Part shown: piece after piece, positions 57,034 through 64,000 of the stretch | How positions within the stretch are numbered: the stretch's first letter is position 1 | Layout of the letters: the number at the start of each line of letters is the position of its first letter | NCBI GenBank assembly: GCA_963820525.1 | Contig: CAWGAA010000003.1 | Location: 768,001-832,000, forward strand | Length of the DNA: 64,000 nucleotides | DNA from: an uncultured Spirochaetota bacterium | GTDB taxonomy: Bacteria > Spirochaetota > Spirochaetia > SZUA-6 > Fen-1364 | Reading direction: 5' to 3' | The notes under the pieces: model-generated | Seen by the model: the letters and a program-made list of their open reading frames with translations, nothing else | Database searches by the model: none | Told to the model about the DNA's origin: nothing | Program-made: the position numbers and the translations under genes

Positions 57034-57768
57034 ATGAAAACTGCGGGATCATCTCGAGAAGCCGGCAATCGTGCGGACCCATCCTGGAGGCTGCTCTATG
57101 CGGCAGGGAGCGCCTCGGCGCTGCTTTACGTCATCATGATCGTCATTCCCCTCACTCTTGTGTTCACCTCTCCCCAGCCTCCGAGCTCGGGAGGAGCGGC
57201 CGTATTGCAGTACATCGCGTCACACAAGGCAATCTACATGGTCGAGCTTGTGTGCTTTGTCGGCCTGAGCGTCCCGGCACTCGTCGTTTTCCTCGCTCTT
57301 TCGGTTTCCCTCAAAGAGCTGAACAAGAGCCTGGCTGCAATTGGCGCTTTGATCGGAATTGTTTCCGAAGTCCTGGCTTTGGCGTTGAACAGCAGCCCCC
57401 CGTCGCTCAACGGCAATCTGGTGTACCTCAGCGCTCAATACGCGGCGGCAGCCACCGATGCCCAGCGTCTGGCGGCGGCGGCCGCAGCCGAGGGTTTCAT
57501 CGCAGAGGCGAACGCCGTTTCTTCCGTCGGCTCATTGACCGCGCTCGGCATTCTGATCCTTTCAGTGGTCATGCTGAAGGGCGTCTTCCGCAAGGGTGCC
57601 GCGTACTTAGGCATTGCGACGGGTGTCGTGGGAATGGTCTTTGAAGCTCTCAGACCGCTGATTGGTTTCGCCTATGGCATCTATGGGCTTCTGCTGCCGG
57701 TATGGTTCGTGGTTGTCGGTTTGAAGCTGTATCAACTGAGCCGCAGTCCCCAACCCGGACAGGGGTGA
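57034..57768 (+). CDS. Multi-pass membrane protein (DUF4386-like)
   Basis: About six hydrophobic helices; AAGGAGG RBS. Confidence 0.6.
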   Translation: MKTAGSSREAGNRADPSWRLLYAAGSASALLYVIMIVIPLTLVFTSPQPPSSGGAAVLQYIASHKAIYMVELVCFVGLSVPALVVFLALSVSLKELNKSLAAIGALIGIVSEVLALALNSSPPSLNGNLVYLSAQYAAAATDAQRLAAAAAAEGFIAEANAVSSVGSLTALGILILSVVMLKGVFRKGAAYLGIATGVVGMVFEALRPLIGFAYGIYGLLLPVWFVVVGLKLYQLSRSPQPGQG

Positions 57769-57773
57769 AAAAA

Positions 57774-57821
57774 GTGAAATTCACAATAACTGCCGGATCA
57801 TGGCGTTATTGCGAAATTCAC
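57774..57821. repeat. Inverted repeat with a TAAC...GTTA core, just past the recombinase stop codon
   Basis: GTGAAATTCACAATAAC (57774-57790) versus GTTATTGCGAAATTCAC (57805-57821): 15/17 complementary. Confidence 0.7.
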
Positions 57822-57825
57822 ACAA

Positions 57826-58623
57826 TTAGAGCGGGCTCTTGATCTTGGCGGCGGTTCTCTCCGTGACATGGAGATAGATCATAGTCGTTTTGACGCTCTT
57901 ATGCCCCAGAAGATCCTTTATCGAGCGTATGTCGATGCCGTTTGAAAGCAGAGCGGTAGCGAAAGAATGCCGTAGAGTGTGGCATGATGCCCGTTTTTGG
58001 ATGCCGCTGCCTTCATAGGCATGGGCGAAAATCGCCTGGACCGTTCTCTTGGTGTACGGTTTCCGGCTTTGGGTGAGGAAAAGGAACTCCTTGCCGTCCC
58101 GATCCCGTACAAGAGCCTTTAACTCCGCCGCGAGGGCTTCCGAGAATACCGTGATCCGGTCCTTGTTCTGCTTTGAATTGACTATCCGGACAGTCAGGGA
58201 AGGGAAATCAAGATCCCGGATTTTAATCCTCACGAGCTCACTCACCCTGAGGCCCGAGCCGAACAGCATGGAGATCATCAGGCGGTGCTTCGGGTTACGG
58301 ATCCTTGACAGAAGAATCAGAATGTCGGCTTTTTCCAGGAACGAGGGAAGCCGGTGTCTTGGACGGGCCTTTTCCAGCTTGTAGGGGCAGGGTTTTTTCA
58401 AAACCAGCTCGTAAAACAGCTTGATTGCGTTCCAGGCGATTCGTCTGGCTTCCTGCGATTCATAGGTGGACAGGAACCGGGATATCCTTTCCACAGGCTC
58501 GAATGCGGTCTTCTTGGAAAACTCAAGGAAGCGGCTTAAGCCGTTGCGATACGCCCTGATGGTGTTCGTTGCATATCCGCGGTTCCTCGATTCCCGAAGG
58601 AAAGCGTCCAGATAATGGTCCAT
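57826..58623 (-). CDS. Tyrosine recombinase (265 aa), integron-associated but lacking the IntI-specific insertion
   Basis: SAM-like N-terminus (RGYATNTIRAY), GLRVSE (R), SKQNKDR (K), HTLRHSFAT (HxxR), LLGH, TMIY (Y), ending KIKSPL. Only ~19 aa lie between KDRITVF and FLF. Confidence 0.92.
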   Translation of the reverse strand: MDHYLDAFLRESRNRGYATNTIRAYRNGLSRFLEFSKKTAFEPVERISRFLSTYESQEARRIAWNAIKLFYELVLKKPCPYKLEKARPRHRLPSFLEKADILILLSRIRNPKHRLMISMLFGSGLRVSELVRIKIRDLDFPSLTVRIVNSKQNKDRITVFSEALAAELKALVRDRDGKEFLFLTQSRKPYTKRTVQAIFAHAYEGSGIQKRASCHTLRHSFATALLSNGIDIRSIKDLLGHKSVKTTMIYLHVTERTAAKIKSPL

Positions 58624-58665
58624 GAAAAGCGCACTCCCCTACCTGTGTATACGGCGGGAACGTGC

Positions 58666-58693
58666 TTGATGATTGGGGAAGATGGTTTATAAT
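58666..58693 (+). promoter_or_regulatory. Candidate array promoter (Pc-like)
   Basis: TTGATG (58666-58671), 16 bp spacer, TATAAT (58688-58693), pointing into the array. Confidence 0.65.
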
Positions 58694-58707
58694 GAGGCAG
58701 AAAAAGA

Positions 58708-58732
58708 GAAATTCACACACAACGAGTTGAAC
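58708..58732 (+). other. Candidate primary recombination site (attI-like)
   Basis: GAAATTCACACACAACGA-GTTGAAC. The core at 58726-58732 fits GTTRRRY and is the exact complement of GTTCAAC at the far end of the first cassette. Confidence 0.7.
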
Positions 58733-58820
58733 AAAATCGCTCCGCGATGGCTTTCATCAAGCCTTAGTCTTCATTCGCCGCCATGAAAGCAAGACAGATG
58801 TTTCCCGCTTGTTATACAGC

Positions 58821-60011
58821 ATGGGCTATATTGAAGCGGCAACGGTTTTTCCAAGACCCAAATTCGAAGTCGCCGATGTTTTCAGACAAAGCACCCAGTT
58901 ACTGAAAGGCATCAGTTATGATCATTGGAAAGTCGTAAACGCAATCATAAACTGCCGCGGTCCGAAATTGGGCGGCCATAAACTTGTTTGCCATGAATGC
59001 GGGTATGAACAGATATCCTATAATTCATGCAGGAACCGGCATTGCCCCAAATGCCAGGCGAGCAAGCAGGCGCAATGGGTTTACGAGCGGACACAAGAGC
59101 TTCTGCCCATAAAATATTTCCATATCGTCTTCACCGTCCCGGCGGTATTGAATTCCCTTATTCTCCAGAATAAAAGAGTGCTCTACGACATTCTCTTTCA
59201 CGCCGCAAACGAGACTCTTCAAGAAGCCGCGGGAAACCCGAAGAATCTCGGCGCGAAGATCGGATTTATCGCCATTCTCCACACCTGGAGCCAAAACCTA
59301 CTTGACCATCCACATCTGCACTGCATTGTTACCGGAGGGGGATTGAGCCGGGATAAATCCGCATGGATTGAAAGCAGGAACAACTTCTTTATCTCGATAC
59401 ACATTCTCAATCGATTGTTCAGAGGTAAATACCTGCATTATTTGAAACAGGCATATGCAGCAAAAGAGTTGAGTTTCTTTGGTAAGTTACGCAAGACAGC
59501 AGAGACAGCCGGGTTTGCAAAGGTGTTGGATGAATGTTATGCGAAAAAATGGATCGTCTACGCCAAAAAGCCGTTTTCCAATCCGTTACGCGTACTGAAA
59601 TATATAGGGCACTATACGCATCGGGTAGCGATCAGCAACAAACGGATATTGAATTTCACCGGCGGAAACGTGAGCTTTATATGGAAGGACTACAGGAATA
59701 GAAACCGGAAAAAGGTAATGACACTTGGCGCCTCCGAGTTCATGAGAAGATTTCTCCTGCATGTGCTGCCGGAAGGATTCAAGCGTATACGATTTTACGG
59801 CCTCTTGAGCAACGGGCACAAAAATGAGAATCTGAAATACATCCGTCGTTTGTTATGCATCGATCTAGAATCTCAACAGCGATCGTATGATTTTTTCTTG
59901 GAAGCGCCTGAGACTATCGAAAAAAGATGTCCCCGCTGCAAGAGCGCGAATATTCAGATTATTGAGCTCCCGCCGGAAAATACCGCTGAAAGTTATTGGA
60001 ACAGCGCGTAA
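58821..60011 (+). CDS. IS91-family (Y2 HUH) transposase
   Basis: Zn-binding CHEC..SCRNRHCPKC, YFHIVFTVP, LHTWSQNL..HPHLH (HUH), YIGHY (Y-x3-Y), FLLHVLP.GF.RIRFYG, C-terminal CPRC. Confidence 0.93.
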   Translation: MGYIEAATVFPRPKFEVADVFRQSTQLLKGISYDHWKVVNAIINCRGPKLGGHKLVCHECGYEQISYNSCRNRHCPKCQASKQAQWVYERTQELLPIKYFHIVFTVPAVLNSLILQNKRVLYDILFHAANETLQEAAGNPKNLGAKIGFIAILHTWSQNLLDHPHLHCIVTGGGLSRDKSAWIESRNNFFISIHILNRLFRGKYLHYLKQAYAAKELSFFGKLRKTAETAGFAKVLDECYAKKWIVYAKKPFSNPLRVLKYIGHYTHRVAISNKRILNFTGGNVSFIWKDYRNRNRKKVMTLGASEFMRRFLLHVLPEGFKRIRFYGLLSNGHKNENLKYIRRLLCIDLESQQRSYDFFLEAPETIEKRCPRCKSANIQIIELPPENTAESYWNSA

Positions 60012-60041
60012 TAAAACCCATAGCGCGGGCGGAGCGACTTC

Positions 60042-60236
60042 GTTCAACATAGGGTTTACGCTCCGCTCCCTCCGGTCGCTCCGGGCTTCGCCACATGCCC
60101 CTCTGGCACAGGGCTTGCAGATCAAATCTTCTTACGGTCCTCTAAGATGTGTGGTACACTCTTTTCTATGTTTTGCGGGGCAACCCCTGTGCCAGCCCTT
60201 CGGGACGGGGCATGTCGTAAACCCTTTACGTTATAC
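60042..60236 (+). other. Branched attC-like site 1 (195 bp)
   Basis: GTTCAAC ... GTTATAC ends; stems AGGGTTTACG/CGTAAACCCT, ACATGCCCC/GGGGCATGT and TGGCACAGGGCTTGC/GCAACCCCTGTGCCA, with side arms. Confidence 0.8.
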
Positions 60237-60240
60237 GCCA

Positions 60241-60280
60241 TTGCGCCTTTGTGCATCAGCTGTATAATATGATGTTAGCT
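60241..60280 (+). promoter_or_regulatory. Internal promoter overlapping a secondary attI-like simple site
   Basis: TTGCGC (60241-60246), 16 bp spacer, TATAAT (60263-60268); GTATAAT-ATGAT-GTTAGCT geometry (7-5-7). Confidence 0.6.
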
Positions 60281-60337
60281 CCTTTAAAGAATTTTTACGT
60301 CATTATTATATCTCTGGATTTTGCTTAGAAATACTAT

Positions 60338-60838
60338 ATGTCACAGAAAATGATGACTAGAAATTATCGGTCTGCAATAATTATTTTTATTGGCATTTTG
60401 TTAGTATCGCTTTTGGGATATTTTTTAATAACCAAGAACACTATTGTTGAAGTGTTAAAGTATAGAGAATTCAAAAATGAGCTTGATTCTTTTATAAAGA
60501 ATTTGAATAAGAATGAATTTGAAAAAGCTGCCTATCAATTCCATTTTCTTGAAGCACAAAGTATTGGAATTGAACAATTAAAAAGAAACTTAGAGTCTAT
60601 AAAGAATAGATTTGGTAAAATAATTAATGGATCTAATAATATAACTTATTTAAAAACTAATAATGATAATATTTCATATTATGCCATTATTAGAATAGAG
60701 AATCCAAAAAATGATGGTGAAGTATTAGAAATAGTTGTGTATGAAGAAAATGGATACGGGAAACCTACTATTACTATATTTAATGGAATTGAATTTAAGG
60801 ATGAAATAAATCTCACAGATTGGGTAATAATGAATTAA
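60338..60838 (+). CDS. AT-rich hypothetical membrane-anchored protein (gene cassette)
   Basis: 166 aa ORF with an N-terminal transmembrane helix, bracketed by GTTAGCTCCTTT (60274-60285) and AAAGGAGCTAAC (60842-60853). Confidence 0.8.
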   Translation: MSQKMMTRNYRSAIIIFIGILLVSLLGYFLITKNTIVEVLKYREFKNELDSFIKNLNKNEFEKAAYQFHFLEAQSIGIEQLKRNLESIKNRFGKIINGSNNITYLKTNNDNISYYAIIRIENPKNDGEVLEIVVYEENGYGKPTITIFNGIEFKDEINLTDWVIMN

Positions 60839-60846
60839 GGAAAAGG

Positions 60847-60965
60847 AGCTAACATGCTGTTGAACTTGACGCCTAACACTTGTTGCAGCCATAGTTGCCT
60901 ACGTCCATAGAACCTTATTGCTTTTGGCTTCGGGTCGGCGGCGCAAGTTAACAGCGTTGTTATCT
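60847..60965 (+). other. Canonical attC site (119 bp)
   Basis: AGCTAAC-ATGCT-GTTGAACT-TGACGCC ... GGCGCA-AGTTAAC-AGCGTT-GTTATCT. The arms pair as GCTGTT[G]AACTTG[A]CGCC with two extrahelical bases. Confidence 0.9.
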
Positions 60966-61013
60966 GGCCCCAAGTCCTTTCAAGATTGCCGTGGCCAATA
61001 GGAGAACCGATGA

Positions 61014-63026
61014 ATGAGTGCCAAACGTGCAGCTGTGACCGCAGGACTCCATCCAGAAGCGAACCTTTCACATTTCACTCCGTACGAGCAGGAACTAATC
61101 CAGAAGCAGTTCTGCACCGAGTTCTATGTAACAAACCAAGGCGGCGTAGTCGAGCTGAGCAGGACATCGGTCTACAGATTCTTCTTGATCAAGCCAACCA
61201 CAGTCTATCAGGAGCAGTTTAACCTCGATCGGGAGATTGTCGTTCTCTTTAGCGACTATCCGAATTTTGAGCCGCGTACGCTGGATGCTATTGAGGAAGC
61301 TTATAAAAGGTACCAGGAACTCCGCATAGAGAAGATATGCTCAGTTCTTATAAGTAGAGATGTGGAAATTGAGCAAAAAATAAAAAGCCTCCTGAAAAAC
61401 ACCAGTGAGAGCCAGATCATCGTTCCATTCCACTACAAGGAGTTGCAGACAGTCTCCGACCTATATTTCTTCAGGAATAGATTCAAAGCCCATTTCTACA
61501 GCAGAGACCTTTTCTCATATGAATCTGCACTCAAGAAGGACCTCTACTTTTTCGGCAGGAGTGATCTCGTTCACAAGGTAGTCAATAGACATCGCAGTGG
61601 AGAGAATTCCGCACTTTTCGGGCTGAGGAAAACCGGTAAGACCTCTATCATTTTCGGAATACGCAGGGTGCTAAACGCGACTGAGGAGAACTCTGTCTAC
61701 ATCGACTGCCAGGACTCCGGCTTCTATTTAAAGAGATGGAATCACGCCCTTCGCTATATAATCGACGAAATAAAATCTCAAAACCACGCGTCCGTAATCT
61801 TGTCCGATGAATCCGAATACACTGAGGATGGCTGTAGCGCGGCTTTTGCAAGAGACATATCAAAGTTGCGCAAGAAACTCGGCGGTAAGCCGATAATGAT
61901 CATTTTCGATGAGCTGGAGCGTATAACATTCGGGCTTTCTTCGGCCGAGCATTGGAAAACGGGGAAGGACTTCGTCCATTTCTGGAGAACTCTTAGGTCT
62001 CTGTTTCAGAAGCTGGAGAGCGTTTTTACCTATCTTATTGTTAGCACGAACCCTCGCTCGGTAGAGACGCCTATGGTCAACGGTGACGAGAATCCCATCT
62101 TTTCTCAAGTTCCATACGAATATATCCCGCCATTTGATGTACCTCAGACGAAGGAAATGGTCGAACGCTTGAGCCAGATCATGGGCCTTCACTTCGATGA
62201 GATTCTGTATTCGAAATTGACGGAGGATTTTGGAGGCCATCCATTTCTCATTCGCATGGTTTGCAGCGCGATCAATCGCCTTTGTGACTCAACGCGGCCA
62301 GTGAGAGTCGATAAAACCGTTTACGAGAAAGGCAAGCAACTCTTCAATAAAGAATATAGTAGCTACATAGAGATGGTGGTCACTGTTCTTCGAGAGAGCT
62401 ATTCCGACGAGTTCGAAATGCTCAAGTTCCTAGCGCTTGGCGACATACCGACCTTTATGGAGTTCGCCTCCGCATCTCGAGAGTACACAAATCACCTTCT
62501 CGGCTACAACATCGTTGATCAAAATAACCAATCCTACTCCTTCAAGATCGAATCGATCAGGGAGTATCTGATATCCGAGAACAAGTACAAGAAGCTAGGC
62601 TTAACAAAGAAAGAGATGCTTGCCGAGATATCCGAACGTCGCAATGAACTGGAACCCCGGCTGAGAAACTTGGTGCGCCAAATTCTGCTTGTGGCAATCG
62701 GCGAGTCTGCCGCCGCCACCCTGGTTCGCAATATCTACGGTGATCCGAGAAAAACTAGATATGCTGGCCTTTCCTACAAAGAATTGTTTAATCCAAATAG
62801 GGTAGATATCTATTGGGACGATCTTCAAAAGATTGTCTTAGCCGAATGGGACCACTTCCAGAATGTGTTCGAAAGAGACAGAGAGGCGTTCATCGTGAAT
62901 ATGAAGGCCGTCAACAAGTATCGGTCTGACGCACACGCAAAGGATATCTCTCCGGAAGAGATGGAACTCTTTCGAGTGTGCGCGACGAGATTGGAGACGC
63001 AGATACGAAACTTCTTCGGAGGATAG
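61014..63026 (+). CDS. P-loop ATPase (STAND/AAA-like) with a C-terminal Swt1-like HEPN domain (gene cassette)
   Basis: FFGR, GLRKTGKTS (Walker A), IIFDELE (Walker B), GGHPF; then ELEPRLRNLV..DDLQKIV..W..F..KYRSDAH; AGGAGA RBS. Confidence 0.75.
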   Translation: MSAKRAAVTAGLHPEANLSHFTPYEQELIQKQFCTEFYVTNQGGVVELSRTSVYRFFLIKPTTVYQEQFNLDREIVVLFSDYPNFEPRTLDAIEEAYKRYQELRIEKICSVLISRDVEIEQKIKSLLKNTSESQIIVPFHYKELQTVSDLYFFRNRFKAHFYSRDLFSYESALKKDLYFFGRSDLVHKVVNRHRSGENSALFGLRKTGKTSIIFGIRRVLNATEENSVYIDCQDSGFYLKRWNHALRYIIDEIKSQNHASVILSDESEYTEDGCSAAFARDISKLRKKLGGKPIMIIFDELERITFGLSSAEHWKTGKDFVHFWRTLRSLFQKLESVFTYLIVSTNPRSVETPMVNGDENPIFSQVPYEYIPPFDVPQTKEMVERLSQIMGLHFDEILYSKLTEDFGGHPFLIRMVCSAINRLCDSTRPVRVDKTVYEKGKQLFNKEYSSYIEMVVTVLRESYSDEFEMLKFLALGDIPTFMEFASASREYTNHLLGYNIVDQNNQSYSFKIESIREYLISENKYKKLGLTKKEMLAEISERRNELEPRLRNLVRQILLVAIGESAAATLVRNIYGDPRKTRYAGLSYKELFNPNRVDIYWDDLQKIVLAEWDHFQNVFERDREAFIVNMKAVNKYRSDAHAKDISPEEMELFRVCATRLETQIRNFFGG

Positions 63027-63033
63027 TGGGGAT

Positions 63034-63147
63034 GGATAGCATGCGGTTGAAGCTGACGGTTTGCTTTTGTCTGATCGGTTCGCCATATCATGTTATAGAC
63101 TGTACTCTTATTAGCTGACTCGACGCAACTTAACCGCGTTTTTATAG
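63034..63147 (+). other. Degenerate canonical-type attC site (114 bp)
   Basis: GGATAGC-ATGCG-GTTGAAGC-TGACG ... CGCA-ACTTAAC-CGCGTT-TTTATAG. Same layout as 60847-60965, but AAC is changed to AGC and GTT to TTT. Confidence 0.75.
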
Positions 63148-63196
63148 GCTGTAAATGGTAGAAAAAGGAAGTAGTTTACTACAAAGGCGCATCGGC

Positions 63197-63330
63197 GCAT
63201 AACGGCACATTGGCGTTCCGGTGCCCTACGGGCACCTTCGGGCTCCGCGGCGCTGCGGCGCGCCGCTCCGCCAAATGTCCCTCGGCCCTGTTGGCCTCTG
63301 GCCACTTCGCCAATGTGCTGCACGTTAAGT
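63197..63330 (+). other. Branched attC-like site 2 (134 bp)
   Basis: GCATAAC ... GTTAAGT ends; perfect stem GCACATTGGCG/CGCCAATGTGC; internal hairpin GGTGCCC-TAC-GGGCACC. Confidence 0.8.
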
Positions 63331-63457
63331 GTAATGCCCGACGGAGCGCCCGCGGTATCGGACGACTAAGGTCGTCTTGCTTTGCATCCTTGGCTTGGAT
63401 AGGAGAAATGAATTGACATTAACATGAGATTCAACTTCTATTTATTGGGGTCACTGA

Positions 63458-64000
63458 TTGCCTGACGAAAATAATCAAGTTGATCATGAAAAACTGAATG
63501 CTCTTTTCGCTGAACAATACCGGTGGGCAAGTCTATCTGTAACCATCGAAGAGATTGCGAAAGAAAACAAATTACTTATTCGTGATCTTTCCAGATACGA
63601 TCAAACCATCGCTATTCCTCTCCTGGCAAGTCTCTTAACACTTCCCGAACTGCAATCGCATTGTATTCGTCTTGAAATTCTCAGTTGCCTTGGCAGTGGT
63701 GTATTGCCGCGGCAGTAAGAAAGCAAATATAAAGCAATTAGTTCGTTGGTTCTCCCAGATCGGCAAATCGCAATGTGTGACGGGTGAAGATCCGGCTGAA
63801 GATGTCTTCGTCTACCTAGTGCAGGATGTGCACGGAGACTACCGGCTTATCGGAGGTATATGGGAGTCGGCTGGCTTCTATACTCAGCGCGTTCTCGATG
63901 TAATTTCTACGATGCCTAACACCGGACAATTCGAGCAAATCAAGAGGAGTGTCCGCGCACTACTTATAATCTCCGATATAGTATGTGGCAAAGCTGGGCT
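63458..64000 (+). CDS. N-terminus of a hypothetical protein (next cassette), frameshifted at ~63683 and truncated by the window end
   Basis: After ..CIRLEIL, skipping one base gives an open frame to the end of the window (VALAVVYCRG..EDPAEDVFV..GIWESAGFYTQRV..). Confidence 0.65.

Follow-up and report, generated by a model that had tools for sequence, protein, structure and literature searches.

Organization of the locus

The locus occupies the right-hand end of the window, by which we mean the whole 64,000-nucleotide stretch that was analyzed. There, a recombinase gene and a co-oriented cassette array point away from each other and an attI-like site adjoins the recombinase gene, the arrangement of an integron. 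The array extends approximately 40 kb beyond the window. The features are as follows:

57774..57824, − strand, terminator-like hairpin behind the stop codon of the recombinase, with arms GTGAAATTCACAATAAC / GTTATTGCGAAATTCAC and then, on the − strand, a T-run
57826..58623, − strand, tyrosine recombinase related to IntI and lacking the IntI insertion (ORF of 265 aa; Pfam Phage_integrase, 1.6e-39)
58666..58693, + strand, Pc-like sigma-70 promoter match TTGATG-16-TATAAT, directed into the array (10/12 consensus matches)
58708..58732, + strand, attI-like site GAAATTCACA-CACAACGA-GTTGAAC, with GTTGAAC at 58726-58732
58727..60230, + strand, unit 1, a cassette-like IS91-family (Y2 HUH) transposase unit of 1504 bp (ORF 58809-60011, 400 aa, plus site A)
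60042..60236, + strand, site A, attC-like, 195 nt (R'' GTTCAAC, 2-nt spacer, stem AGGGTTTACG, 4-nt spacer, R' GTT)
60231..60274, + strand, conserved short module at the cassette start, TTATACGCCATTGCGCC...TATAAT, containing a promoter-like -35/-10 pair
60275..60959, + strand, unit 2, a low-GC cassette (166-aa ORF 60338-60838 plus site B)
60847..60965, + strand, site B, canonical-family attC (spacers 2/3, two 1-nt bulges)
60960..63324, + strand, unit 3 (670-aa ORF 61014-63026 plus site C)
63197..63330, + strand, site C, class-ii attC (spacers 1/5, 11-bp perfect stem)
63325..64000, + strand, start of unit 4, anti-phage gene Upx (overlapping frames 63458-63718 and 63672-64000 onward)

An earlier, sequence-only reading of this DNA had counted four fold-back sites. 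Three of these, A, B, and C, are strong, but the fourth, the hairpin at 57774-57824, is terminator-like and probably ends the recombinase gene. The same hairpin forms the left edge of the platform; by BLAST, similarity to a second genomic copy begins at 57770, and the left flank consists of an ordinary chromosomal gene rather than a split attC. The divergent TTGATG-16-TATAAT element reported previously is present and is kept in the copy on contig C1, though promoter-like matches in this region did not exceed those in shuffled sequences (three found against 3.0 expected). The GTTGAAC core, likewise noted before, coincides with the start of unit 1: five of six genomic copies, the window's own included, begin exactly at 58726, and the sixth is 5′-truncated. 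Crossover in the attI-like site would thus fall between G58726 and T58727. A motif, GAAWTTCMYA-N8-9-GTT, recurs at the array starts of relatives, with 10 matches on the upstream array strand of 22 loci and none elsewhere in them; genome-wide, it has three matches, two of which are at platforms.

The first cargo gene had been read as one of the single ORFs of the array, a description that was incomplete; its product is an IS91-family transposase (NF033538, 420 bits against a cut-off of 125, with Pfam Y2_Tnp and Zn_Tnp_IS91 matches) carried with an attC-like site of its own, whose 10-bp stem is perfect. The right boundary of unit 1 is common to all six genomic copies and the left to five; the copies have exact GTT...GTT boundaries and are preceded by different attC sites. 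In one contig of metagenome X2, of depth 3.7, position 58725 is joined to 60230 with a 3-nt overlap, giving the platform without its transposase cassette, which is missing precisely from one predicted crossover point to the other. ISShvi3, one of the IS91-family insertion sequences with an IntI-like tyrosine recombinase, has been noted as a cassette-like unit (PMC9229058).

Unit 1 is followed by the module at 60231-60274, which probably acts as a promoter, and the unit after it starts at GTTAGC (60274). A family search gave no match for the 166-aa ORF of unit 2, and weak AAA/STAND NTPase matches for the 670-aa ORF of unit 3. Unit 4 runs past the window and closes 3.5 kb further on, at a class-ii attC. 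Completed units were said to start with a reverse-complement copy of the bases just before their own terminal site. This complementarity is seen in unit 1 (GTTGAACAAAATCGC against GCGACTTCGTTCAAC, 13/15), unit 2 (GTTAGCTCC against GGAGCTAAC, 9/9), and unit 4, the end of which lies outside the window (14/15), but in unit 3 it is limited to GTTAT.

A recombinase related to integron integrases

Alignment to IntI4 (2a3v) bore out the claim that the 265-aa protein has all catalytic residues of a tyrosine recombinase, placing them at R126, K151/K154, H215, R218, H241, and Y250. Across 21 clade members, the R, K, HxxR, H, and Y positions are invariant or nearly so. The C-terminus is SPL, as in IntI4, and the nearest kin of the protein are integron integrases. 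The insertion of ~42 residues that marks IntI is absent, as had been proposed, and the segment at its position measures 39 residues versus 81 in 34 canonical IntI. IntI4 residues 180-246 were skipped in the PDB alignment, the match to the IntI model TIGR02249 was split into two stretches with model positions 178-253 skipped, and an AF2 model (pLDDT 85.9) lacks the extra helices at this place. The TIGR02249 score of the protein is 191 bits where the cut-off is 265, short of an IntI-type assignment and in line with the prediction that IntI-profile annotation would miss it. Messier and Roy, in 2001, reportedly found the insertion to be necessary for IntI activity.

Xer identity was considered and rejected, as every Xer cut-off among the NCBIfam equivalog models was missed (XerA, 201.6 bits against 220; XerD, 157 against 329.6; XerC, 152.4 against 335). 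In Foldseek, XerA (5hxy) and IntI4 ranked level. The protein resembles XerA, XerC, and XerD in length, fold, and catalytic residues but differs from them in its IntI-like SPL end, its occurrence in a minority of the genomes of the phylum, and its position beside cassette arrays.

The alignment and tree proposed earlier as a check placed the short recombinase outside the canonical IntI clade (34 rows, support 100) and in a clade of its own (six rows, support 100), in a tree built by a quick method in which the insertion-less groups form a polytomy. The IS91-linked clades lie apart from this clade. The protein collection contains at least 100 clusters of ~265-aa recombinases. Within the phylum, the short recombinase occurs in a minority of genomes, with three clear members among 300 other genomes sampled. 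It belongs to the "integron-like" subgroup of tyrosine recombinases, which takes in the insertion-less recombinases of IS91 elements (Smyshlyaev et al., 10.1101/542381).

Two kinds of site and their distribution

Class-ii sites of the array comprise an AAC box, 1-2 unpaired nucleotides, a covarying 10-bp stem, 4-6 unpaired nucleotides, and GTT. They are AAC...GTT imperfect palindromes with structure conserved over sequence, as in attC, and mostly lack the two single-base bulges of canonical sites. Of 17 family-ii sites, 15 have 1/5 spacers and two have 1/4 spacers. The L stem opens with a perfect run of 6-11 bp, and a single-base bulge comes next in only four of the 17, such that the family as a whole does not show the two single extrahelical bases of a folded attC stem. 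The L stem covaries, with 8 of 11 pairs changed on both sides and 99.4% of cells paired. A strict geometry detector returned 16 matches in the 38-kb array versus 73 in the 5-Mb genome, both strands, which is more than chance would give. Cassettes average ~2-3 kb, some being multi-gene and many beginning with a conserved promoter-like module, and the cargo is rich in anti-phage genes.

A canonical IntI elsewhere in the genome had been named as something that might explain all of the sites. Two such genes do exist, intact (448 and 410 bits, no stops) and each with its own array, but the strict detector found no class-ii match in the 42 kb searched of canonical array. The attC type of the canonical IntI arrays differs from class ii in genomes G000 (two arrays), G001, and G002, where at least two 1-nt bulges occur in 56/57, 3/4, 4/5, and 6/6 distinct sites, respectively. 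In G002, 26 family-ii matches are spread over four contigs, none of them the canonical IntI contig. Four of seven examined short-recombinase genomes have an intact canonical IntI (G000 and G001-G003); no IntI above cut-off was found in G072 (95% complete) or G109 (87% complete), both of which have the short recombinase.

Canonical-type cassettes also occur inside the short-recombinase array, at site B and at C3:855605, and therefore at least one enzyme crosses between the systems. Site B is of the attC type found beside the canonical IntI genes of the genome, with a near-identical type at C1:702008; the two systems therefore exchange cassettes. ATAAC/GTTAT boxes are common to both site types.

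The survey of homologue neighborhoods suggested by the sequence-only reading revealed variable cassette arrays on the divergent side of the recombinase. Class-ii geometry and the conserved attI-like motif accompany the short recombinase down to 48-53% identity, invariably on its divergent side and in no case next to the canonical IntI of those genomes. Nine close relatives have 500 nt or more of sequence upstream of the recombinase gene; family-ii attC sites occur there in seven (L016, L017, L111, and L114-L117), with none upstream in L118 and L122 and none downstream in any of the nine. In the relatives, the strict detector gave 21 matches in 47.7 kb of the upstream array-direction strand and one on the opposite strand, against a single match in 197 kb downstream with both strands counted. 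In L018/L124, L123, and L191 (51-53% identity), the site sequences are unrelated and the geometry is alike. Many of these loci are close relatives and not independent, representing about five or six lineages, and matches in the example loci are partly circular because both the class-ii detector and the attI motif were designed after examples had been seen.

A probable integron-like cassette system and its alternatives

We consider it probable that an integron-like cassette system, a variant distinct from the classical integron, starts at this locus, with catalysis by the recombinase being putative. Cassettes would be inserted and excised at G|TT between the attI-like site and folded class-ii sites, the short recombinase would be the enzyme acting on class-ii sites, and these may react as folded single strands, the asymmetric loop replacing the role of the extrahelical bases that are read by the IntI insertion. 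In this genome, the first cassette carries an IS91-family transposase gene, and its site A has the shape of the right ends of IS91-plus-recombinase elements in other phyla, which suggests that the cassette system and those elements rely on common recombinase-site chemistry and may have the same origin. The core of the sequence-only interpretation, a cassette platform headed by an insertion-less recombinase, stands; it was incomplete in overlooking the two canonical IntI, the canonical nature of site B, and the published subgroup.

The likeness to sedentary chromosomal integrons, such as that from C1:682092 onward, includes a divergent recombinase that heads the array together with a promoter-like site and an attI-like site; co-oriented cassettes with AAC...GTT imperfect palindromes and a covarying stem; cassette starts complementary to their own site; and homogeneity of the site sequences within a lineage, with cargo rich in anti-phage genes. 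Defense cargo in integrons has already been published (10.1101/2024.07.02.601686). Sedentary chromosomal integrons differ in having the IntI-specific insertion, whereas the short recombinase lacks it and falls outside the IntI clade. The array also departs from them in its asymmetric loop (1-2 / 4-6 nt), mostly without single-base bulges, and in its large cassettes of ~2-3 kb, many with a promoter-like start module.

The array could instead be a CALIN, defined in the IntegronFinder paper as a cluster of attC sites that has no integron integrase (PMC4889954), served in trans by the two canonical IntI, with the short recombinase a bystander with another function, for instance resolving or inverting DNA, or a relic. 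We regard this as unlikely, even though the adjoining protein is below the IntI cut-off, no integron integrase being present by IntI-profile criteria. We expect that standard integron searches would not call the array an integron, IntegronFinder's label included. The intactness of both canonical IntI genes, the canonical-type cassettes within the array, and the boxes shared by both site types are consistent with service in trans, and a published genome-wide survey concludes that insertion-less recombinases close to attC sites are not integron integrases (PMC4889954). Set against this, a CALIN would leave unexplained why a conserved IntI-related recombinase always sits at the array head, in integron orientation and with a conserved attI-like motif attached. 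Moreover, class-ii geometry tracks the short recombinase through unrelated site sequences, class-ii sites were not found in the canonical arrays searched in the same genomes, and the short recombinase occurs in two fairly complete genomes that have no IntI above cut-off.

Less probable still, in our view, is that recombinase and transposase together (57770-60232, 2.46 kb) form one copy of an attC-homing element of the IS91 family, which inserted beside an array that was already in place. This 2.46-kb block does have a second genomic copy at C1:3097326-3095566, in which the recombinase is internally deleted, and site A matches the right ends of co-oriented recombinase-transposase elements of other phyla in both its R'' GTTCAAC and its geometry. 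The features that IS91 elements with an IntI-like recombinase share with the locus are an insertion-less recombinase, a Y2 HUH transposase, and a folded class-ii end with R'' GTTCAAC. However, in 23 IS91-linked loci, the two genes are co-oriented and adjacent, whereas in the window they are divergent, and the recombinase gene does not directly precede the transposase gene in the same orientation, as it would in an IS91 element of this kind. The recombinase stands outside the mobile unit and keeps a fixed place where a long array of unrelated cargo begins, and the repeated, mobile piece is the transposase unit alone. A transposase is in reach at only 1 of 24 short-recombinase loci, L129, which has the most distant recombinase (42% identity); the transposase follows right behind that recombinase, resembling the co-oriented type. 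Of five related genomes, only one carries an intact transposase of the IS91 family, and the left flank, an ordinary chromosomal gene, also argues against such a landing.

Beyond the integron-like system proposed for this locus, the insertion-less IntI relatives, comprising the spirochete array-head clade and the IS91-element recombinases, may conceivably constitute a second, independent kind of integron with a site mark of its own, the 4-6-nt one-sided loop, a view that we advance tentatively. If true, this loop near the crossover box would be read in place of two extrahelical bases, and defense-rich arrays would be built of large cassettes bringing their own promoters. How integron cassettes are made or mobilized is an open question for integrons, and a rolling-circle enzyme releasing single-stranded circles with such end-sites would offer a route to either. 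The IS91 transposase cassette may thus be more than a passenger at array heads; it heads all three arrays of this genome.

The recombinase at the head of the array

Definitions of integrons, and searches for them, rely on the insertion specific to IntI integrases, which is regarded as enabling the enzyme to read folded attC sites. The cassette system observed in the window is real, and it is headed by an IntI-related tyrosine recombinase that lacks this insertion (here, the short recombinase). To the left of the platform, a GC-rich membrane-protein gene ends at 57768, past which GC content drops from ~0.62 to 0.37–0.51 over ~40 kb, to window coordinate ~98000.

Features of the platform and first units (window coordinates unless prefixed; C3, contig of the window, which is C3:768001–832000; L016 and L114, loci of homologues)
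57826–58623, minus strand: tyrosine recombinase, 265 aa, first gene of the low-GC stretch
58666–58693, pointing into the array: promoter-like match TTGATG-16-TATAAT, between recombinase start and array
58708–58732: attI-like site GAAATTCACA-CACAACGA-GTTGAAC, between recombinase start and array
58809–60011: ORF of an IS91-family Y2 HUH transposase (NF033538, 420 bits; Y2_Tnp, Zn_Tnp_IS91)
60042–60236: site A, fold-back of 195 nt, 3′ part of unit 1
60230–60274 (also C3:859721 and 864290; L016:5533 and 4082; L114:5421): module GTTAT..CATTGCG(Y)C
60847–60965: site B, fold-back after the second ORF of the array
63197–63330: site C, fold-back after the third ORF of the array

The sequence-only reading had credited this protein with all catalytic residues and denied it the IntI insertion, and both points were borne out. 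Residues R126, K151/K154, H215, R218, H241, and Y250 are conserved across 21 clade members, as is the C-terminal SPL common to the short recombinase and the Vibrio integron integrase IntI4. The protein matched Pfam Phage_integrase (1.6e-39), and one of its two best NCBIfam models was archaeal XerA (201.6 bits, cut-off 220); the integron-integrase model TIGR02249 reached 191 bits, below its cut-off of 265, in two stretches that skipped model positions 178–253. IntI4 (2a3v) was the nearest solved relative by sequence (3e-37), and because its alignment splits into two stretches (residues 12–170 to 13–179 and 195–265 to 247–317), IntI4 residues 180–246 have no counterpart in the short recombinase. 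Between residues 160 and 200, a 39-residue segment compares with 81 residues in canonical IntI (alignment, n = 34), and in an AlphaFold model (pLDDT 85.9) this segment forms one helix and short strands. Foldseek ranked 2a3v and XerA (5hxy) level for that model. An alignment and tree had also been proposed; a quick maximum-likelihood tree (72 rows) grouped canonical IntI in one clade (support 100) and six spirochaete proteins, the short recombinase included, in their own clade outside it (support 100). The spirochaete clade stood apart from the IS91-linked groups, in a polytomy of the insertion-less groups. At least 100 clusters of the clade were present in a protein collection, nearly all of ~265 aa and annotated at source as XerD or tyrosine recombinase.

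The transposase unit and copies of the platform

A promoter and a GTTGAAC core had been claimed between recombinase and array; a promoter-like match was located at 58666–58693 and the core at 58726. The accompanying description, of co-oriented single ORFs separated by four fold-back sites, with each completed unit opening on the complement of its own site, needed amendment. The first ORF encodes an IS91-family transposase and is no ordinary cargo gene, though it lies in a cassette-like unit (unit 1, 58727–60230). Sites A, B, and C were retained, and the fourth, a hairpin at 57774–57824, was rejected as an attC site. Were it one, the recombinase gene would itself be a cassette; the gene start is not complementary to the hairpin, and the hairpin differs in a second copy of the platform on contig C1, where it has no ATAAC/GTTAT. 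Complementarity between the unit start and the sequence before its own site was found for units 1, 2, and 4, and over only five bases for unit 3.

Unit 1 starts with the complement of GTTCAAC, the R″ end box of site A. Six genomic copies of unit 1, including that of the window, share a right end after ...CCCTTTACG|TT (60230), and in five of them the left end is the G of GTTGAAC (58726), the remaining copy being cut at its 5′ side. Three copies lie directly behind different attC sites within the window's array. The transposase unit is thus cassette-like in its behavior. In one contig of public metagenome run X2 (depth 3.7; 156 and 53 flanking bases), 58725 is followed by 60230, the two sides overlapping by 3 bases. 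It represents a platform from which the transposase cassette is missing, with both breaks precisely at the predicted G|TT points; this junction was not found in the source genome assembly. The contig is direct, though thin, evidence that site-specific exchange at the attI-like site inserts or removes unit 1. Other contig joints were discarded as rearrangements: 63305 to 58726 and 60099 to 63322 correspond to paralogous copies elsewhere in the array, and 57866 to 58572 to a recombinase relic on C1. In a contig of a further run, X4, site A is missing 72 central bases (60113–60186, the inner stem-loop), which indicates natural variation in the interior of this site.

The block 57770–60232 has its second copy at C1:3097326–3095566, at the head of another class-ii array (defined below). 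There, a ~705-bp internal deletion has reduced the recombinase gene to its first ~50 and last ~45 bases, and the attI-like site, the transposase unit, and a low-GC array still follow this relic. A third array, also on C1, starts with a 5′-truncated transposase unit.

Two site classes and the canonical integrases

The window system appears to work like an integron but departs from the classical family in two defining features, lacking the IntI insertion and, in most sites, the extrahelical bases. Canonical-type sites apart (see below), the sites of the array share a geometry that we call class ii, consisting of an AAC box, 1–2 nt, a stem of ~10 bp, 4–6 nt, and GTT. One sequence family (family ii, core GGGCTCCGCGGCGCTGC...) has nine copies on C3 and five on C1, and is absent from the stretches scanned beside the two canonical IntI genes of this genome. 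Its geometry is constant, with one unpaired base, a perfect stem of 6–11 bp, and 4–5 unpaired bases between the AAC box and GTT; of 17 sites, 15 have spacers of 1/5 and two have 1/4. Across 14 aligned family-ii sites from three genomes, the 11-pair inner (L) stem had changes on both sides at 8 pairs, with 99.4% of cells paired. Site A (spacers 2/4) and a 70-nt site at C3:857136 (1/5) also have the class-ii shape, as do further array sites with quite different central parts. Canonical sites, in contrast, have near-symmetric spacers and two single-base bulges, at least two bulges being found in 56/57, 3/4, 4/5, and 6/6 distinct sites of four canonical arrays.

An attC scanner that anchored the arms and penalized gaps only slightly performed well on canonical sites and missed most class-ii sites because of their 4–6-nt loop; these were located by motif search and a geometry detector. 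As constraint folding did not enforce AAC/GTT pairing for class-ii sites and left 12 of 16 unparsed, their geometry was taken from spacer and stem counts instead. A strict class-ii detector gave 16 matches on the array strand of C3:828042–865594, one of which, inside the Upx gene, is probably due to chance, and 73 when both strands of the entire genome were searched.

Two intact canonical IntI genes (448 and 410 bits) lie in this genome on another contig than the window.

Canonical IntI loci of the source genome
C1:682092–725000: canonical IntI (410 bits) and large chromosomal array, outside the window (locus L015 covers its start)
C1:1954228–1955157: second canonical IntI, with four attC sites of the same family as the large array

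In the 42 kb searched, the large array has at least 61 attC sites; they are very uniform, 113–119 nt long, and of two alternating subtypes. The class-ii array could in principle be served in trans by these canonical enzymes, which are intact, and canonical-type sites do occur inside it, namely site B, of the same attC family as the sites beside the canonical IntI genes, and C3:855605; some leakage between the two site classes therefore occurs. The sequence-only reading had allowed that a canonical IntI elsewhere might account for all the sites. Such enzymes exist here, but the strict detector, run over 42 kb of the canonical array, found no class-ii site. Moreover, two genomes with the short recombinase, G072 (95% complete) and G109 (87% complete), have no IntI above cut-off. 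Related genomes G001, G002, and G003 each carry, besides the short recombinase, one canonical IntI, which is adjoined by an array with canonical-type sites, and in G002, 26 matches to a family-ii site fall on four contigs, none of them the IntI contig. In this distribution, each of the two recombinases is accompanied by its own site class in the same cell. We consider service in trans, the main rival reading, unlikely, and the short recombinase is probably the cognate enzyme of the class-ii array, to judge from these sequence comparisons.

Relatives, IS91 elements, and cargo

A scan of species-representative genomes yielded 80 loci. Of these, 34 rows were canonical IntI; 23 loci, mostly from Bacteroidota, had an insertion-less recombinase followed directly by a co-oriented IS91 transposase; and five Spirochaetota loci (48–71% identity) encoded proteins of similar length with no transposase nearby. 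A metagenome scan with the short recombinase added 19 loci (42–84% identity). In a 300-genome sample of the phylum, only G049, G109, and G072 held clear clade members (51–53% identity), the remaining matches being longer proteins at 35–46% identity.

A survey of homologue neighborhoods, as the sequence-only reading had proposed, found 21 class-ii sites on the array-direction strand of 47.7 kb of upstream sequence and one on the other strand, vs one in 197 kb of downstream sequence with both strands counted. Nine close relatives had 500 nt or more of sequence upstream, and family-ii sites lay there in seven of them (L016, L017, L111, and L114–L117), with none in L118 and L122 and none downstream in any locus. 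In the distant members L018/L124 (53%), L123 (53%), and L191 (51%), site sequences are unrelated or only partly related to family ii; the geometry is 1–2/5–6, and the 10-bp stem differs among copies with pairing kept. Array starts carry an attI-like motif, GAAWTTCMYA, 8–9 bases, and GTT, whose regular expression had 10 matches in 22 loci, all of them on the upstream array strand, and three in the 5-Mb source genome, two of these at the two platforms; variants were seen by eye in L114, L191, and L123. In L111, L114, L191, and L123, the opening of the first cassette is complementary to the R″ region of its own site. As motif and detector were both designed after seeing examples, the weight rests on the controls (other strand, downstream sequence, and whole genome) and on loci outside the design. 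First-cassette boundaries at L111:440–425 and L114:6283–6270 have GTA/TAC in place of GTT/AAC. In all nine contigs >10 kb, the recombinase lies ≤6.5 kb from the upstream-side contig end, as expected next to repeats. Flanks of the window and of L016/L017 have nothing in common but the recombinase, and hence give no evidence of a fixed chromosomal position. In L016 (5653–6081) and equivalently in L017, a conserved 142-aa membrane-protein gene lies between recombinase gene and attI-like site, placing the array start 0.6–1.3 kb from the recombinase.

A recombinase directly ahead of a co-oriented IS91 transposase is a known IS91 type (10.1101/542381). The window's recombinase and transposase were considered as one such element, and the evidence speaks against it: the two genes diverge, the repeat consists of the transposase unit alone, and the left flank is chromosomal. 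Furthermore, a transposase was in reach in only 1 of 24 recombinase-found loci (L129, the most distant at 42% identity, where its position immediately downstream matches the co-oriented type), and among five related genomes, an intact IS91 transposase occurs in just one. The co-oriented elements of other phyla terminate just past the transposase in a fold-back, detected in 8 of 23 IS91-linked loci by a relaxed detector and by eye; it has an R″ of GTTCAAC (GCTCAAC or GTCCAAC in two), spacers between 1/4 and 2/6, and GTT. Class-ii geometry therefore accompanies insertion-less IntI relatives in two settings. Among the co-oriented elements, L023:2375–2444, L029:3532–3600, L047:5185–5271, and others (Bacteroidota, Fibrobacterota) have R″ GTTCAAC and a one-sided loop like that of site A.

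Our literature search returned no account of an array-heading insertion-less integrase or of the class-ii geometry. On insertion-less integrases, IS91 cassettes, or attC targeting, it returned only a passing remark that an IS91-like element, ISShvi3, adjoining an attC site in Shewanella is a new cassette structure (PMC9229058), and a statement that IntI shares one "integron-like" subgroup with recombinases of IS91 and IS3 elements that have no insertion (10.1101/542381). The IntegronFinder paper counts 50 non-IntI recombinases near attC sites, among 18,808, and judges proteins without the IntI-specific region not to be integron integrases (PMC4889954). If a conserved platform without the insertion does act on sites of another shape, some of the arrays at present classed as integrase-less attC clusters, or missed altogether, would represent a parallel system. 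It would offer a natural experiment in strand and site choice without extrahelical-base recognition, and would link integron integrases to recombinases of IS91 rolling-circle elements, which bears on the origin of integrons and cassettes.

Genes of the array outside the window are Upx (in three ORFs), a type II restriction-modification pair, PDC-S31, a split type IIG enzyme, a Fic protein, PD-T4-3, and an HNH protein. The array is also a reservoir of anti-phage genes, among them Upx, restriction-modification, PD-T4-3, and Fic. Upx extends from window 63458–64000 to L011:6672–10247; its model of ~1270 positions matched across three ORFs (86 aa, 842 aa in an overlapping frame, and 295 aa), so the gene is probably frameshifted or broken. 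At L012:6582–10626 (C3:851582–855626), a type IIG restriction-methyltransferase gene in two ORFs is interrupted by an opposite DDE_3 (IS630-like) transposase gene. Many class-ii cassettes open with the conserved GTTAT..CATTGCG(Y)C module, often with a TATAAT-like hexamer ~33 bases in, as if they brought their own promoter.
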